A stretch of 64,000 nt of DNA, taken from the sequence record OP778609; one strand, 5' to 3'. Origin of the DNA: Escherichia phage A73. The position numbers were made by a program, and so were the translations under genes. Position 1 is the stretch's first letter; every line of letters begins with the position of its first letter. This document shows, one piece after another, positions 5,579 through 38,302 of the stretch. The notes under the pieces were generated by a model. The model had not been told where the DNA came from. It worked only from the letters and a program-made list of their open reading frames with translations, and searched no databases.

Positions 5579-6187
5579 TCAATCACAACTGCTTGAAGAA
5601 CTGCTACTGCTACTATCCGAAGAATAACTATCGTAAGATGATGAGCTATCATACGAACTTGATCGACTTGGAGAACAGTAAGAACTTGAACTACTTGTAC
5701 GATCTTCACTGGATGACATTACGGCAGCATACGTTGCCACACCACCTAAAGCTGCCACCTGAGGATCAACCTGGCTAGTCCCGTACCCGTTTGGGGAGTC
5801 GCTCATCTTACGTGGTGCTGCCCGACGTGCCTGATCAATATACTGTCGCTTTGCCTTCGGCGGTAATTTCTTACCTTGAGCATAGGACGGTAATTCAACG
5901 CCCTTCAGTTGTTCATCCAAGGACTTAGGCGGTGTAGCCTGAGCTTTTGGGCGTTCAATTGAGATATCTACAACCTTCATTGTTTTATCTTTAAGGTTTA
6001 CCCCTACCAACGCTTCATTTTCCTTTAGTGGTTCTTCTAAAGATCGTGTTTCAACTGGACTGAATTTAACGCTTGCAGTTTCTTGACGTTGTTCAGCTTG
6101 CTTTGCGATATACTTATCGATCGCCGCAGTTTCTACTTCCAGAGGAATAAATAATGATTTTACCCAAGCAACAAACTTCTTGATCAT
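5579..6187 (-). CDS. hypothetical protein with Ser-rich low-complexity C-terminal tail
   Basis: 202 aa; N-terminal hydrophobic segment; C-terminal poly-Ser/Tyr/Asp tract. Confidence 0.5.
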   Translation of the reverse strand: MIKKFVAWVKSLFIPLEVETAAIDKYIAKQAEQRQETASVKFSPVETRSLEEPLKENEALVGVNLKDKTMKVVDISIERPKAQATPPKSLDEQLKGVELPSYAQGKKLPPKAKRQYIDQARRAAPRKMSDSPNGYGTSQVDPQVAALGGVATYAAVMSSSEDRTSSSSSYCSPSRSSSYDSSSSYDSYSSDSSSSSSSSSCD

Positions 6188-7886: not shown

Positions 7887-8153
7887 TTAGATATAGTCTA
7901 CACCAGCTTGTTCCAACAAGTCAAGCCTTAATTTAAGTTCTTTTTCACGATAGTCGGAAACAAGTTTATCCTTTTTCTTTTCTTCTTCGTCGAACTGTTC
8001 GAGTGGAAGAATACGAATAATGTGCTCTGCCTTCATGTAGGACGTTGATCCGATAAGCTGAACATTACCATTTGGTAACAATCGACCCTTGATCACCCGA
8101 TAACGAGGGAACAAGTCATATTTAACAATCGCGGTAACTGCTAGATTACTCAT
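7887..8153 (-). CDS. hypothetical protein
   Basis: 88-aa ORF. Confidence 0.4.
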   Translation of the reverse strand: MSNLAVTAIVKYDLFPRYRVIKGRLLPNGNVQLIGSTSYMKAEHIIRILPLEQFDEEEKKKDKLVSDYREKELKLRLDLLEQAGVDYI

Positions 8154-8523
8154 GTGTATTCTCCATATCGCGAATTCGATCTTCTACCCAACCACGACGA
8201 TAAATGTTGAGGTAAGATTTACCTTTTGAACCATGATGGGCATATTCGTCAAAATCAAAATCAAAAGGCGTCTCGGTGTTAAGACCCGCATCAAAGAATT
8301 GATTCTTCATTTCGAATTGCACTTTCATGTCTGGATCATTTTTACCTAAAAATGAAGACAAATTAAAACAAAGGCCAGCACCTCGGTAAAAAGCCCCATC
8401 TTTTGGTGCACCGATATCTAACCATTTTTTATATTCTCGGTAGAAATTCAGAAGTTGCGGACTGCTTTTCATTTTGTTCTCCTCATTTGTTTTGATAGGA
8501 CTACTATAACATAGTCCTATCAA
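8146..8523 (-). CDS. hypothetical protein (paralog of 17858-18154)
   Basis: 125 aa; shares W-L-D-GAP, GLC, F(F/T)DAGL and FPFD motifs with the 98-aa protein at 17858-18154. Confidence 0.5.
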   Translation of the reverse strand: MIGLCYSSPIKTNEENKMKSSPQLLNFYREYKKWLDIGAPKDGAFYRGAGLCFNLSSFLGKNDPDMKVQFEMKNQFFDAGLNTETPFDFDFDEYAHHGSKGKSYLNIYRRGWVEDRIRDMENTHE

Positions 8524-8605
8524 CTTGTATACTATTTAATTAAAGATTTTATGAATGCTTGGTAGGACCCTTCTTTAAATACTCATCTGGATAATAAAAA
8601 TCATC

Positions 8606-8983
8606 CTATACTCCAAATGTGGATTTGATTTCAGCAATAACCTCATGCACATTGTTTTCGTTTACTTCAAATGTGTAGGACGTTGGTTTAAGGAACGTCT
8701 GAGGTGAAACATTAACAAAGAATTCAAATTCATCATTAAAAATTTCAAAGTATTTTCCAGGTGTTGATTCTTGGCTTTTGAAAACAGTACCATCTTCCAT
8801 AGTAACAGAAGAAACAGATTTTTCACCAAGGGTGTATGTTTTTAGCTCGTCAACAACGAAACTGGGGCCGTGGCGACGGAGTATTTCAACCATAGTTCGG
8901 TTAGCTCCACAAATACCAGTACGATTAATAAATAACTCTTCACACCGAGGATTGAGAATATAAGTTTTTCCTACTTGCATCAT
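8606..8983 (-). CDS. hypothetical protein, tandem paralog family member 1
   Basis: 125 aa; starts M(M)QVGKTYILNP; RBS AAGGAG; similar to the next two genes. Confidence 0.55.
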   Translation of the reverse strand: MMQVGKTYILNPRCEELFINRTGICGANRTMVEILRRHGPSFVVDELKTYTLGEKSVSSVTMEDGTVFKSQESTPGKYFEIFNDEFEFFVNVSPQTFLKPTSYTFEVNENNVHEVIAEIKSTFGV

Positions 8984-8993
8984 TACAATCTCC

Positions 8994-9353
8994 TTATGCT
9001 AAGTTAAATGTGGATTTGATCAGGTCAATAACCTCTTGTGCGTTGCTCTCCGACACAGATACCTGAATAATTTTAAGGTCGCTGACCTCTTCAAAGTATT
9101 CGAACTCAGATTCACGAAGTTCAAAGTACATTGCCCCACAGCCCACACTGAATGAATCACACCCTACAGCACCATCTTCTGTTGTGATGTTATTAACATA
9201 CTCATCACCTTCGATCATGCTCATGTTGTTAACAATAAATCGTGGCCCGTGCTCATCCAGAAAAGAAACAATCTCGTGATTGTAACTTGGGTCAGCCTGA
9301 ATAAATTCTTCTACGAGTTTTGGATTAAGTTTATAAGTTTTTCCGACTTCCAT
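8994..9353 (-). CDS. hypothetical protein, tandem paralog family member 2
   Basis: 119 aa; MEVGKTYKLNP ... HGPRFIVNN ... SNAQEVIDLIKSTFNLA. Confidence 0.55.
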   Translation of the reverse strand: MEVGKTYKLNPKLVEEFIQADPSYNHEIVSFLDEHGPRFIVNNMSMIEGDEYVNNITTEDGAVGCDSFSVGCGAMYFELRESEFEYFEEVSDLKIIQVSVSESNAQEVIDLIKSTFNLA

Positions 9354-9364
9354 CTTTGTTCTCC

Positions 9365-9739
9365 TTACGCCAGGTTAAAGGTAGCTTTAATCAAATCTAA
9401 AGTTTCTTGTGCATTACTACGAGAGACGGCAACCTGAATAATAACAGGGTCTTCATCTTCCCCGACTTCTTTGAAGAAGGGAAATTCACTCTCTGCAAGT
9501 TCAAAGTATACACACTTGTTACCTTCGCAGTCGTGAAAAACGTCACTACCTAAAGTACCATCTTCAAATATGACATTGTTAACATATGCAACATTATCAT
9601 AGAAGTGGGTGGTGTTGACAACAAATTTAGGACCGTGCTTATAAATAAGGTCAACCAATTCTTGATTGTAGCTAGGGTCCATATTGATAAAAGCTTTTTC
9701 TAAGTCTTTATTAAGAATGTAAGTTTTTCCGATTTCCAT
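9365..9739 (-). CDS. hypothetical protein, tandem paralog family member 3
   Basis: Start moved to the internal Met (MEIGKTYILN) with RBS GAGGAG by paralog alignment; track ORF extends to 9826. Confidence 0.5.
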   Translation of the reverse strand: MEIGKTYILNKDLEKAFINMDPSYNQELVDLIYKHGPKFVVNTTHFYDNVAYVNNVIFEDGTLGSDVFHDCEGNKCVYFELAESEFPFFKEVGEDEDPVIIQVAVSRSNAQETLDLIKATFNLA

Positions 9740-9816
9740 CTTTGCTCTCCTCTTCAGTTGATGGATACATCTTAGTTGATATAGACATGTCTTGTCAATA
9801 ACTTTTTGCACATAAA

Positions 9817-9840
9817 AGAAAACCACCCTTCGGGGTGGTT
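9817..9840 (-). terminator. rho-independent terminator
   Basis: ACCACCCTTCGGGGTGGT hairpin with a T-run on the minus strand, after the polymerase 3' segment. Confidence 0.6.
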
Positions 9841-9847
9841 TAAATTA

Positions 9848-9994
9848 CTAGTGGCACGCCCCCCAGTTCATCCCTGTGAGGTATTCACCTGTTATGTGGA
9901 CAGGAGATTTCATCATTCGTGCTGCTTGCTCTACACAACGAACAACCATCTCTCCAACTGGACAATACATGATCGTGTAGATTCCATTCTCATC
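9848..9994 (-). CDS. DNA polymerase A, C-terminal segment (motif C Asp-Glu to C-terminal His)
   Basis: The last 48 aa of track ORF 9848-10198 (DENGIYTIMYCPVGEMVV...GMNWGACH) match the remembered T7 gp5/Pol I C-terminus including the terminal His; continues exon 1, which ends ...YYH. Confidence 0.6.
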   Translation of the reverse strand, partial: DENGIYTIMYCPVGEMVVRCVEQAARMMKSPVHITGEYLTGMNWGACH

Positions 9995-10919
9995 AGGATC
10001 ACACTTAAACTTCCCTTCTTTCACACAATGACCATCCAAGATCATTTTCTTAGCCAAGCAAGCTTCTACAAATTTCTTCGCGTCAGCTTCGTTGTCAAAG
10101 GTCCAGGTCTTCTTGAACTTGTGCGGTACTTCAAGCTGGTATTCATCCAAAAGTTTAACGAGGTCGTTACTCTCGCCCACATCATTACATGTTGCCATAC
10201 GTTTTCACATATGGATCGGACTATATCACCATCCTTTTCAGGATGCTCCCCATTTCGACGGCACTTGCTCGCCTACGCCTCTCGGCTAGTCTCTGAACGT
10301 TAGGACCATGTGTAGTCACAAGAGATGTGTGTCCAGTTTTTACGGATTTTTATGGACCTTACCACGTTGTAAGGATAACCCATATCCCGAATCTGTGCAC
10401 TTCCATAACCTTGCCCCAGGAAGTTGCAAATCTCTCTAACCTCTTCTTCGGTAACTATACTTCTGGCGTTATCAACCCCTGTTGCTGAACGACATTTATC
10501 AGCAAAGGTTTTCTTGATATTTCCACCACGAGTTGTCCATTGGAGGTTTGAATAGTGGTTATTCCTTTTGTCAGGCCACTTATGATCAACCTCCGGCAAA
10601 CCTTCAGGGTTTGGTACAAAACACTCTGCCACCAAAACGTGAACAGCCTTTGTAGTCGTCCTTTTGTTGAGATACAGACTTACAATAAGATACCCACGTC
10701 CATTATCAACTGCCGCCATTGGTTTCCCTCGACGACCTATAATGGTCCCGTCTTCATAAACCTTGTAACCGAAATAATCTTTATATTCCACATGATCCTC
10801 TTCGCTGCTGATTAACATAGTCTCATACTAACTCACACTTGAATTAATATCAACCTTAGTCTTCCAGCAATTAAAGGAGTTTTCGATGTGAGTTACCTCA
10901 CAAAGCCACAATGTTACTT
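9995..10919 (-). mobile_element. intervening sequence splitting the polymerase gene (intron-like or free-standing homing endonuclease cassette)
   Basis: About 925 nt inserted between the His and Asp codons of polymerase motif C; contains an HNH endonuclease ORF. Confidence 0.55.
10300..10818 (-). CDS. HNH homing endonuclease
   Basis: 172 aa; NUMOD4-like N-terminus (YKVYEDGTIIG) and HNH motif (VDHKWPDKRNNHYSNLQW). Confidence 0.8.
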   Translation of the reverse strand: MLISSEEDHVEYKDYFGYKVYEDGTIIGRRGKPMAAVDNGRGYLIVSLYLNKRTTTKAVHVLVAECFVPNPEGLPEVDHKWPDKRNNHYSNLQWTTRGGNIKKTFADKCRSATGVDNARSIVTEEEVREICNFLGQGYGSAQIRDMGYPYNVVRSIKIRKNWTHISCDYTWS

Positions 10920-13250
10920 ATGGTAATAGATAATACGTCTAACGCCTTCATCATACCAACCTTTCTTGACCAACTGCCAGTGCAGGAGGATACCCACCAA
11001 GTCAAACAGTGCAGCACCACCATTCTGCTGATAAGCATTAAGCAATGAGTGTTTGGAACGAGTGTAGATCTTACGTCCATCAAGACCGTAGATGAATCGC
11101 TTACCGTTAGCTTCCCAAAACTTCTCTAATGCTTCTTTACGACCTTTCAAGCCGATGTTGCTATCCCAGAATGCGTCGATTACTGCCTGGGCCTTCTCAA
11201 GAGTGATCCCCAGCATTGATGCAATCTTCGCTGCCTGTGCCCCGTACATAATTCCGTATGTCACACCTTTACCTTCACCACGAGAAACCTTCTTCCCTGC
11301 CGCTTTGGTATACGCTTCTGCGTTTCGGGAGTGAGCATCTCCAGATTCCATGATACGAAGATAAGCACCGCCATCGAAATCATAAGCGCCCCATGCTGCG
11401 ATCATACCTTCTAGGTTTGAACCGTCGATACCTACCTGATATTTACCCTCAGAGGCTCTGAATAGTTCACGCATCTCTTTACCGAGAAGAACTTTCTCAT
11501 CCGGCTTAGGTACGTTTGCTACGATCGTATGCTTACGACGACCTGTGTTAGTTATTCCACTATAACGGGCCGGAAGTTTACCGTCAACTCGTAGACGTGG
11601 ATGGTTAAGCCATCCGGTATCAACCTTCTCTTCTTTCAGCGGGTCAAGAACAGATCGTCGGTTACGTAAAGACAGCCATTTAACAATCTGTTTAGCCATT
11701 TCACCATCTACTCGCTCAAGGTTAGGGCAAAGACCCTGTTGATCCTTAAGTTGTGGAGATGTAGGTAATGCACGAGCTTTCTTACGGAAAAACTTGAACA
11801 TCTTTTCTTTATCTGACCACTGCTTAGGTGTGATCGCCAAGCTTTTCAGAATCAGATCACGATACTCCGTCTGATCCAAATCTTCAATGTATTGACGAAC
11901 AATCAGATCAACTTCACTATCGGGACGTTGTTTCTTGAACTGATCTTTAGTTGCATCCTTTGTACGCCAAATTGTTGGGACCCATCCTGCATCACGGATC
12001 AGGAACTTCTTAACGTCGTCCTGGTTACCAATACGCATCGGAATCATAATGTCCGGCATCTTTTGTTCTTTGATATCCATCAAAGCACGAGCCATATCTT
12101 CCGGCGGCAAAGGAACAAGCCCTTGCTGCTTAACGTTTTGTGCACGGATAAAATCACCCATTTTGGATTCGTCCTCTACACCGTGTTCAACACAATACTT
12201 GATCGCGGCAGCAGTAAGAGATCCGTCAGCCTTAAACGGCTTACTTGGTGCACCTTTAAATTCCAAGGCTTCCCAATTGATATTATAACCTAACTTCTCT
12301 AACCATTTCCAACCTGTACCGGAAAGAGATCCATCACCCTTGAAAGGTTTGGATGGGAATGTCGGTTGTGCTGATTTCGACATCTCTTTCTTCGGCAACT
12401 TAGGTTCAACCTCTAACTCAATGTCAGTCATCATCTTATCGATACGATCACGAAGCTTGAGTGCTTTTTCTTCATCAAATGAAACACCCTGAATTTCTTG
12501 CTCAATCATCAGGTAGTCAGTCAACATACCTCGACGCAGGGCATTCTTCCAGTTGATCATTTTATACTTCTTCTGATCTTTGTCTGTTTCATCCTTAAAC
12601 ATGAAGCGTTTATCATCCGGCATGGATTCACAGGAGATCTCTTTCATCAGAGCATCCCACACCATTTCGTTGATAATTACGTCTTCAATAATACGATCGC
12701 AATACTTCCAAAGTGGAAGGCCACGCCAATCTTCAATCGCCACTTTCTGGTTAGCTACTCGCATACCCCAAGCTTCAAGCCCGTGTGGCCCTACAGGCTT
12801 CATTTTACCTGTGACGGGGTTCTTTACCATCTCAGGACAACCGCGAGGCAGAGGGCGATCTGGATACAATGTACGGGACATTGAAAGTGTATCGAAGATG
12901 GTTACTTGTTTACCATTGATCGTCCCCATGCAACCAGGGTCTGCAAACATATCGTAAGTTGTTCCTAGCATCTTCTTAAACAACTGGAGGTCATAGCCGA
13001 AGATGTTGTGGATAGCAACTGCTTTAGGCTCGGTAACGAACCATTCGTTTAATTCTTCAAGGGTGCGGATCTTGAAGTTTTTACCTTTAGATTGGATAAA
13101 TTTAACAGCTTGATCGTAACCTTCTCGCTGTGGATCAAGAAAGATGTTCCAGTTATCTTTTTTGTACTCTTTAAACAAGATGCAGTGGATTAGATCAACT
13201 TCTGTCAACAGACCATTAGCTTCCGCATCTCCAATAAATAAGCCTTTCAT
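10920..13250 (-). CDS. DNA polymerase A (T7 gp5-like), N-terminal exo domain plus polymerase domain through the His of motif C
   Basis: 3'-5' exo motif GDAEANGL; motif A GIDGSNLEGM; motif B KGVTYGIMYGA; tail GLDGRKIYTRS...NAYQQNGGAALFDL; the ORF stops two codons after the motif C His. Confidence 0.85.
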
Positions 13251-37681: not shown

Positions 37682-38302
37682 ATGGCTATATATGCAAAAC
37701 TGAAAGAAAGTAAGAAAAGTTATTTTATTTCAATGGACCCATCTAACCGACGTATGATTGAAAATCATGGTGATCGATTCATTGTTCGACCTTCTGAGAA
37801 TAACGATTCTTACTTACGTCCGGTGGGTCCACGTATTGAGGGTCAGTTCTTAACATCCAGAGATATCGAAGAGTATTTCACATTCTTCCCTCAATGGTCA
37901 GCGGAGTCGGCAGAATACATCGTTAACCTAGCGATCCCAAGGGGTGAAGTGGCTATTGATGATCAGTATCTGCTGGGGGATAAATGGGGTGACTACAAGA
38001 TCAAAACAAGTCATCCAAATATGTGGCGACTGTATAACTCCGATAATCCTGACGATTATGTTATGCTTAAGCAAAGTAATTTGGAAAAATACTTCACCTT
38101 GCAGGAAGATAGCTTAAAAAAAGCATTGGCTAAGTTTGATAATTACACTCCTGCACCTGTAGAAAAAGAACAGGAAGTTGTAGATACGGATGTTTTTGAA
38201 GTGAACATTAAGCGCACAGTCAGAGTTAAGGATGCGGAAGTCACAGAGGACAATCTGGATCAATTCATTGCACAGCTTACTAAACTGGTTAAAGGAGAAT
38301 AA
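37682..38302 (+). CDS. hypothetical protein
   Basis: 206 aa; RBS GAGGAG. Confidence 0.55.
   Translation: MAIYAKLKESKKSYFISMDPSNRRMIENHGDRFIVRPSENNDSYLRPVGPRIEGQFLTSRDIEEYFTFFPQWSAESAEYIVNLAIPRGEVAIDDQYLLGDKWGDYKIKTSHPNMWRLYNSDNPDDYVMLKQSNLEKYFTLQEDSLKKALAKFDNYTPAPVEKEQEVVDTDVFEVNIKRTVRVKDAEVTEDNLDQFIAQLTKLVKGE

Follow-up and report, generated by a model that had tools for sequence, protein, structure and literature searches.

A known relative of the proteins analysed here is Frd.2 of phage T4. In a CRISPRi-ART screen, frd.2 stood alone among the T4 'Fit' genes in having no known function, and its score was modest (0.83, p 0.027, compared with 3.29 for gene 32) (PMC11879866). Plating was normal for an amber mutant of T4 frd.2, and the closest PDB neighbours of Frd.2 are FeoA-type SH3 domains (Kim et al. 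2025, PMC12152347). Wild-type GoF and MotB.1, two T4 proteins of the same published superfamily, were without effect in an mRNA-stability reporter, in which only the GoF(D25Y) variant was effective (Kim et al. 2025, PMC12152347). The definition of the PeSL, a type of cassette repeated in T4-like genomes, includes a subclass whose stem-loop lies over the -10 box (Arbiol et al. 2010, PMC2839356). In addition, gene sharing between rV5-like and T4-like phages was already noted in the rV5 annotation.

Compared with these systems, the locus described here has a familiar gene family in a different setting. The window, the whole 64,000-nucleotide stretch of Escherichia phage A73 (OP778609) that was analysed, is 100% identical at positions 8400-10300 to Escherichia phage W70 (OP778610.1, Vequintavirinae, 137 kb), and W70 gene names are used below. 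The array and its surroundings comprise the following features:

8473-8560, minus strand: PeSL-type cassette downstream of copy 1 (promoter scan)
8606-8983, minus strand: Frd.2-family paralog copy 1, 125 aa, W70_89, Pfam FRD2 E 3.2e-20
8994-9353, minus strand: Frd.2-family paralog copy 2, 119 aa, W70_88
9365-9739, minus strand: Frd.2-family paralog copy 3, 124 aa, W70_87, Pfam FRD2 E 1.3e-18
9769-9798, minus strand: predicted sigma-70-like promoter, TTGACA-18 nt-TAAGAT, upstream of copy 3 (consensus scan, 10/12 matches)
9820-9841, minus strand: intrinsic-terminator-like hairpin with a T-run, after the polymerase C-terminal gene (terminator scan)
9848-10198, minus strand: C-terminal part of a family-A DNA polymerase, upstream of the array
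10300-10818: HNH endonuclease gene between the two polymerase parts
10914-13250, minus strand: N-terminal part of the family-A DNA polymerase

On profile evidence, the three array proteins are members of the T4 Frd.2 family, that is, PF03197 'Bacteriophage FRD2 protein' or PHROG 622. Pfam scores were 73.1, 73.0 and 67.9 bits for copies 1, 2 and 3, respectively, against a gathering cut-off of 29 bits, with all three copies covering profile positions 2-95 of 96, and PHROG 622 was matched by each copy over its whole length (E 8e-22 for copy 3), with a match spanning residues 1-123. The proteins also have the stand-alone size of the family (about 115-130 aa) and match it from end to end, including the N-terminal M..GK.Y motif, which lies outside the Pfam model. 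The initial annotation had presented the array as an unknown family; this description has to be given up, because the family is that of T4 Frd.2 and was already treated in Kim et al. 2025 (PMC12152347). When 1.84 billion cluster representatives were searched exhaustively with the profile, only 39 clusters were obtained, about 30 of which are stand-alone proteins of 112-138 aa. Giant matches (1749-6096 aa) were considered as polyvalent proteins, and since the two that were scanned proved to be cadherin-repeat proteins, they were taken as repeat-caused false positives. A search with the three-sequence alignment returned only three loci (a 170-kb contig, two tandem FRD2 genes and a partial match), and a word-indexed homolog search with the array proteins returned only the query's own cluster. 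In a full-length alignment of 30 sequences, consisting of the three copies and 27 cluster representatives, the invariant residues are Y7, N25, F39, E83, F87, N104 and F116, and all three copies also have the conserved YFEL.E.EF..FEEV block. FRD2 genes are usually found in T4-like genomes, flanked by gene 32 and frd, whereas the present genes lie downstream of a family-A polymerase in the Vequintavirinae. The gene 32-frd setting is a habit of the family and not part of its definition.

Elsewhere in the window, a plus-strand gene (37682-38302) encodes a 206-aa protein whose N-terminal segment, YFISMDPSNRRMIENHGDRFIV, resembles the N-terminal domain of Frd.2, with an hmmsearch E of 2.8e-7 within the window and 90% by hhalign. 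This protein had no Pfam match and no rV5 homolog, and it may be a fourth, distant relative of Frd.2.

The three copies are related to each other over their full length by BLASTP, at 54% identity between copies 3 and 2 (E 3e-43), 38% between copies 1 and 2 (E 8e-21) and 36% between copies 1 and 3 (E 5e-20). The three-copy alignment has 35 invariant columns distributed from end to end, and the similarity is therefore not confined to low-complexity segments, so that a low-complexity origin can be dismissed. The proposal that three consecutive genes are tandem paralogs of one small-protein family, each translated separately from its own RBS, is thus borne out by the full-length homology and by the GGAG-type Shine-Dalgarno found 5-6 nt before the ATG in all three copies; the intergenic spacers within the array are 10-11 nt. 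The initial annotation leaves unmentioned that all three genes are on the minus strand. Copies 2 and 3 form a sister pair in a neighbour-joining tree, and their similarity extends through the stop/RBS/start junction (TAAGGAGA.CAAAGATGGAA.TCGGAAAAAC), which fits a tandem duplication of a gene-plus-RBS unit. For copy 3, the GenBank start (W70_87) is GTG 9826, giving 153 aa. This start is probably wrong, since it sits within the terminator hairpin that follows the polymerase; in A5-4, A7_1 and UPEC06 the gene is annotated as the 375-nt form matching ATG 9739. This ATG, preceded by a strong RBS, is likely to be the true start.

The sequences flanking the array suggest how it may be expressed. Because the terminator-like hairpin (9841-9820; RNA fold -13.8 kcal/mol, z -3.6) and the sigma-70-like promoter both lie between the polymerase stop and copy 3, the three genes look like an operon separate from the polymerase transcript. 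The predicted promoter (9798-9769) is likely to drive this three-gene operon, with the count of sigma-70-like sites in the region being no higher than in shuffled sequence. At the other end of the array, the cassette at 8473-8560 consists of an AT-rich tract, a -35 box TATACA (8531-8526), a hairpin over the -10 box TATAGT, a Shine-Dalgarno and the ATG (8472) of the next gene. The hairpin, GATAGGACTA-N8-TAGTCCTATC (8521-8494), has a 10-bp stem (-18.4 kcal/mol, z -7.0). In this arrangement, the cassette fits the PeSL definition, in the subclass with the stem-loop over the -10 box, and its promoter and terminator activities are predicted ones. Among phage records, 383 carry the element, at 1640 places in total; the T4-like records listed have up to 10 per genome, and the window has a single copy. 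Mosigvirus FP43 has an element with an identical core between its two FRD2 genes.

The gene after the PeSL (minus-strand ORF 8146-8523, likely start ATG 8472, hence gene 8149-8472) belongs to PHROG 2510. A T4-like origin was considered for it and rejected, since its relatives are found in phAPEC8-like and other phages instead. With up to 6 places per genome, and two in W70, the PHROG 2510 gene is by its matches another multi-copy small-gene family. In addition, a 202-aa ORF with a long serine-rich, low-complexity tail (SSSSSYCSPSRSSSYDSSSSYDSYSSDSSSSSSSSSCD) is located at 5579-6187 on the minus strand.

The array has a narrow distribution outside the T4-like phages. When each copy was compared by tblastn with 50,697 phage records, 488-649 records were matched, and five Vequintavirinae (W70, A7_1, A5-4, UPEC06 and LTH01) carried three tandem copies each. 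The other records listed, with 27-47% identity, are T4-like by name or by a genome of about 160-175 kb, except for a handful of short or incomplete records and a 142-kb one that is labelled Pseudomonas phage; among the records listed, most have one FRD2 place and a subset has two. A profile search found no FRD2 member in any ORF of the full rV5 genome, nor in the ORFs of the 10 kb around the CR9 polymerase. The comparison of copy number in related phages, as called for in the initial annotation, thus gave three copies in all five W70-like phages and none in rV5 or at the CR9 polymerase locus. In CR9, the polymerase is separated by five unrelated genes from the homolog of the W70 gene at 7887-8153, and therefore the interval downstream of the polymerase is a variable region; the view of the array as accessory genes is upheld by this difference from CR9. 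Extra small genes absent from W70 are present between the polymerase and copy 3 in A5-4 (L002 4523-5474) and A7_1 (L005 706-2231), and A5-4 has one further small gene, also absent from W70, beyond copy 1 (L002 3132-3374), which confirms frequent gene gain and loss around the array.

The array had also been placed directly downstream of the polymerase split, and this position stands. The polymerase is split by the HNH gene in W70, LTH01 and A5-4, the last of these being annotated in three pieces, and CR9 has an HNH gene at the same polymerase site (74% identical). In contrast, UPEC06 and A7_1 have an intact polymerase, yet carry the same three array genes, and so the split is unrelated to the array. 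A link between the two was rejected, since the HNH insertion is present or absent among close relatives that all carry the array.

The relationships of individual copies point to T4-like phages as the source. Copy 1 matches FP43 at 111338-111694 (46% identity, tblastn E 7e-28) and groups with this downstream Frd.2 paralog of FP43 in the neighbour-joining tree, its identity to copies 2 and 3 being 37-41%. On the other hand, the gene in slot 1 of LTH01 (L007 3001-3390) groups with the upstream paralog of FP43, at 60% identity as against 47% to W70 copy 1. The first 12 residues of this LTH01 allele are those of W70 copy 1 and the remainder is of the T4/FP43-upstream type, which suggests that slot 1 of LTH01 was replaced by recombination with a breakpoint inside the gene. 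In LTH01, the PeSL similarity to FP43 runs on into the 3' end of the slot-1 gene, and the slot-1 gene together with the cassette aligns with FP43 over 99% of its length at 76% nucleotide identity. From these relationships we infer that the W70 lineage would have received Frd.2 genes from T4-like phages through recombination in which PeSL-type cassettes took part, and that the slot beside the PeSL would have been replaced at least once. As the protein identities are only 46-60%, the donor would be unsampled or the transfer old.

With regard to selection, dN/dS among the five W70-like phages was 0.00-0.08 for copy 1, 0.06-0.31 for copy 2 and 0.11-0.31 for copy 3, and by these ortholog ratios every copy is maintained by purifying selection. 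The ratios are gene-wide, five genomes giving no power at the level of single sites. Diversifying selection, which the initial annotation had offered as a reason for the tandem expansion, is therefore unsupported at the gene-wide level. Between paralogs, dS exceeds 1.5 and synonymous sites are saturated, so dN/dS is uninformative in this comparison, and the paralogs are by the same measure old. The numbers of variable columns among the five phages were 4, 11 and 19 for copies 1, 2 and 3; copy 3 is the most variable, with 10 of its 19 variable columns in residues 43-51 and 67-76. Diversification can be retained in one sense, in that the copy-1 slot is polymorphic (the LTH01 allele being 47% identical), but the change came through gene replacement and not through point mutation.

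The AlphaFold2 model of copy 2, built on the 30-sequence alignment, has a mean pLDDT of 91.6 and consists, in order, of a strand, two helices, a beta-hairpin, more strands and a C-terminal helix. The model shows an SH3/FeoA-like barrel as the predicted N-terminal domain, as published for the T4 GoF/MotB.1/Frd.2 group, and the closest PDB neighbours of this predicted SH3/LSm-like barrel are of the FeoA type, as for T4 Frd.2. Foldseek of the copy 2 model against the PDB gave no match below E 0.1, and a sequence search against the PDB matched no chain. Among predicted viral structures (BFVD), Foldseek gave 51 matches at E <= 1e-3, of which the named ones are all uncharacterised phage proteins; the matches include a GoF (E 1.6e-4) and T4 MotB.1 (E 6.9e-4). 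When the FRD2 profile was aligned by hhalign with T4 GoF and MotB.1, the probabilities were 91% and 60%, respectively. [quoted passage not shown]

Taken together, we favour, as a reasonably probable explanation, that the array is a set of Frd.2-family genes of T4-like origin, acquired with a PeSL and expressed as an early operon, whose products have a protein-binding barrel and distinct partners. First, a Frd.2 gene with an adjoining PeSL would have come from a T4-like phage into the variable region downstream of the polymerase in the W70 lineage, copies 2 and 3 would have arisen by tandem duplication of the gene-plus-RBS unit, and the slot beside the PeSL would have been swapped between two T4-type alleles. 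Second, the array would be transcribed as one early operon from the sigma-70-type promoter, and each product, a strongly acidic and presumably non-enzymatic protein of about 14 kDa, would bind a partner macromolecule through its barrel. Third, the three diverged paralogs would bind different partners or partner variants. The partner may be a host or phage protein in nucleic-acid transactions, which is likelier than RNA itself because the family is strongly acidic throughout (median pI 4.5, net charge -4 to -19) and its nearest solved folds are protein-interaction barrels. FRD2 genes stand beside replication genes in both groups of phages, gene 32 in the T4-likes and the DNA polymerase here, and this neighbourhood gives a weak hint that the partner acts on nucleic acids.

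A rather unlikely alternative is that these proteins bind RNA in the manner of LSm/Hfq and stabilise, or serve as chaperones for, certain mRNAs of the phage or the host, as Kim et al. 2025 (PMC12152347) propose in their working hypothesis for the GoF/MotB.1/Frd.2 family. A five-stranded bent barrel, termed LSm-like by the authors, is common to the family, and a gene 41 leader reporter has a longer half-life with GoF(D25Y) (PMC12152347). The remote similarity of T4 GoF to the FRD2 profile (91% probability), together with the GoF among the BFVD matches, also speaks for this hypothesis, but the acidic charge of the array proteins (pI 4.1-5.0) argues against direct RNA binding.

Less likely again, in our opinion, is that the three copies inhibit variable host factors or defence systems and that the array is the outcome of an arms race. 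Phage inhibitors are commonly early proteins that are small and acidic. The location of the array in a variable accessory region differing from CR9, the divergence of the three copies, the replaced slot-1 allele of LTH01 and the variation of copy 3 at 19 of its 124 positions among close relatives would all agree with such a role. However, the gene-wide dN/dS is 0.04-0.31 in all copies, and no family member is tied to any defence system in the literature searched. When the array proteins were compared with the PADLOC defence models, no significant match was obtained, and a stray Csm4 match (E 0.0076) concerned copy 2 only. We are more doubtful still about a stronger form of this idea, in which the array would be a portable host-takeover or counter-defence cassette that moves on PeSLs across unrelated phage families, with each paralog neutralising a different host protein. 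Finally, a chance or low-complexity resemblance, or a set of decaying and non-functional duplicates, has nothing in its favour except that the function of the family is not known, and it is refuted to the point of being negligible by the full-length BLASTP matches (E 5e-20 to 3e-43), by Pfam scores far over the cut-off and by the dN/dS results, the ORFs being intact, equipped with strong RBSs and retained in five phages under purifying selection.

The array of Frd.2-family, partner-binding paralogs that we prefer has several useful aspects. The Frd.2 family is extended beyond the T4-like phages into a small clade of rV5-like coliphages, and the T4-type PeSL bordering the array hints at a route by which accessory genes pass from one phage family to another. 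In addition, three diverged copies under purifying selection make it possible to ask, in a natural system, whether the partners differ between paralogs, and they lie away from the gene 32 neighbourhood, which complicates knock-downs in T4. To a specialist the array will not be surprising; it is a fairly ordinary case, a small extension of the range of the known T4 Frd.2 family with a clear evolutionary story.

The array and its cassette share features with several known systems to different degrees. The FeoA/SH3-like and Tudor-like barrels (PDB 6e55, CarD 4l5g and the UvrD C-terminal domain 7egs) are 5-18% identical to an array protein and, with no significant Foldseek match, resemble it in fold only and not as members of the family. 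T4 GoF and MotB.1 have an N-terminal barrel remotely homologous to that of the array proteins, and they are likewise small early proteins of unknown function. In contrast, their C-terminal halves are unlike those of the array proteins, there is no BLAST-level similarity, and a genetic phenotype, concerning growth on rho mutants and the level of gene 41 mRNA, is on record for GoF but not for Frd.2. The T4-type PeSLs (Arbiol et al. 2010, PMC2839356; Comeau et al. 2014, PMC4122927) have the same AT-rich tract, sigma-70-like boxes, stem-loop over the -10, Shine-Dalgarno and start codon as the cassette described here. They are intergenic, lie in variable regions and are repeated many times per T4-like genome, whereas here the element is single and in a genome that is not T4-like.

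Tandem or near-tandem FRD2 genes are also known in T4-like phages. Mosigvirus FP43 has two of them (110890-111276 and 111338-111700) in the order 32-FRD2-PeSL-FRD2-frd.1, and a metagenomic Logan contig (SRR19226105_3) has the order 32-FRD2-FRD3-FRD2. The T4-like arrangements are pairs beside gene 32 and frd.1, with two copies and not three, and the PeSL stands between the FRD2 pair in FP43, whereas in W70 it follows copy 1 and would drive an unrelated phAPEC8-type gene. The array proteins agree best with T4 Frd.2 itself (NP_049852, T4p241, 128 aa), which shares their Pfam and PHROG family, matches them over the full length and is of similar size (119-125 aa in the array). Both have the GK.Y N-terminus, N25, a G at alignment position 36, the YFE..E.EF..F.EV motif, N104 and a C-terminal helix ending in K..F, and T4 Frd.2 is likewise acidic, with a predicted N-terminal barrel whose best PDB neighbour is FeoA. 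The identity of T4 Frd.2 to the array copies is only 30-38%, however, and T4 Frd.2 is present in one copy between gene 32 and frd in the Tevenvirinae, whereas the array has three copies placed after a family-A DNA polymerase in the Vequintavirinae.
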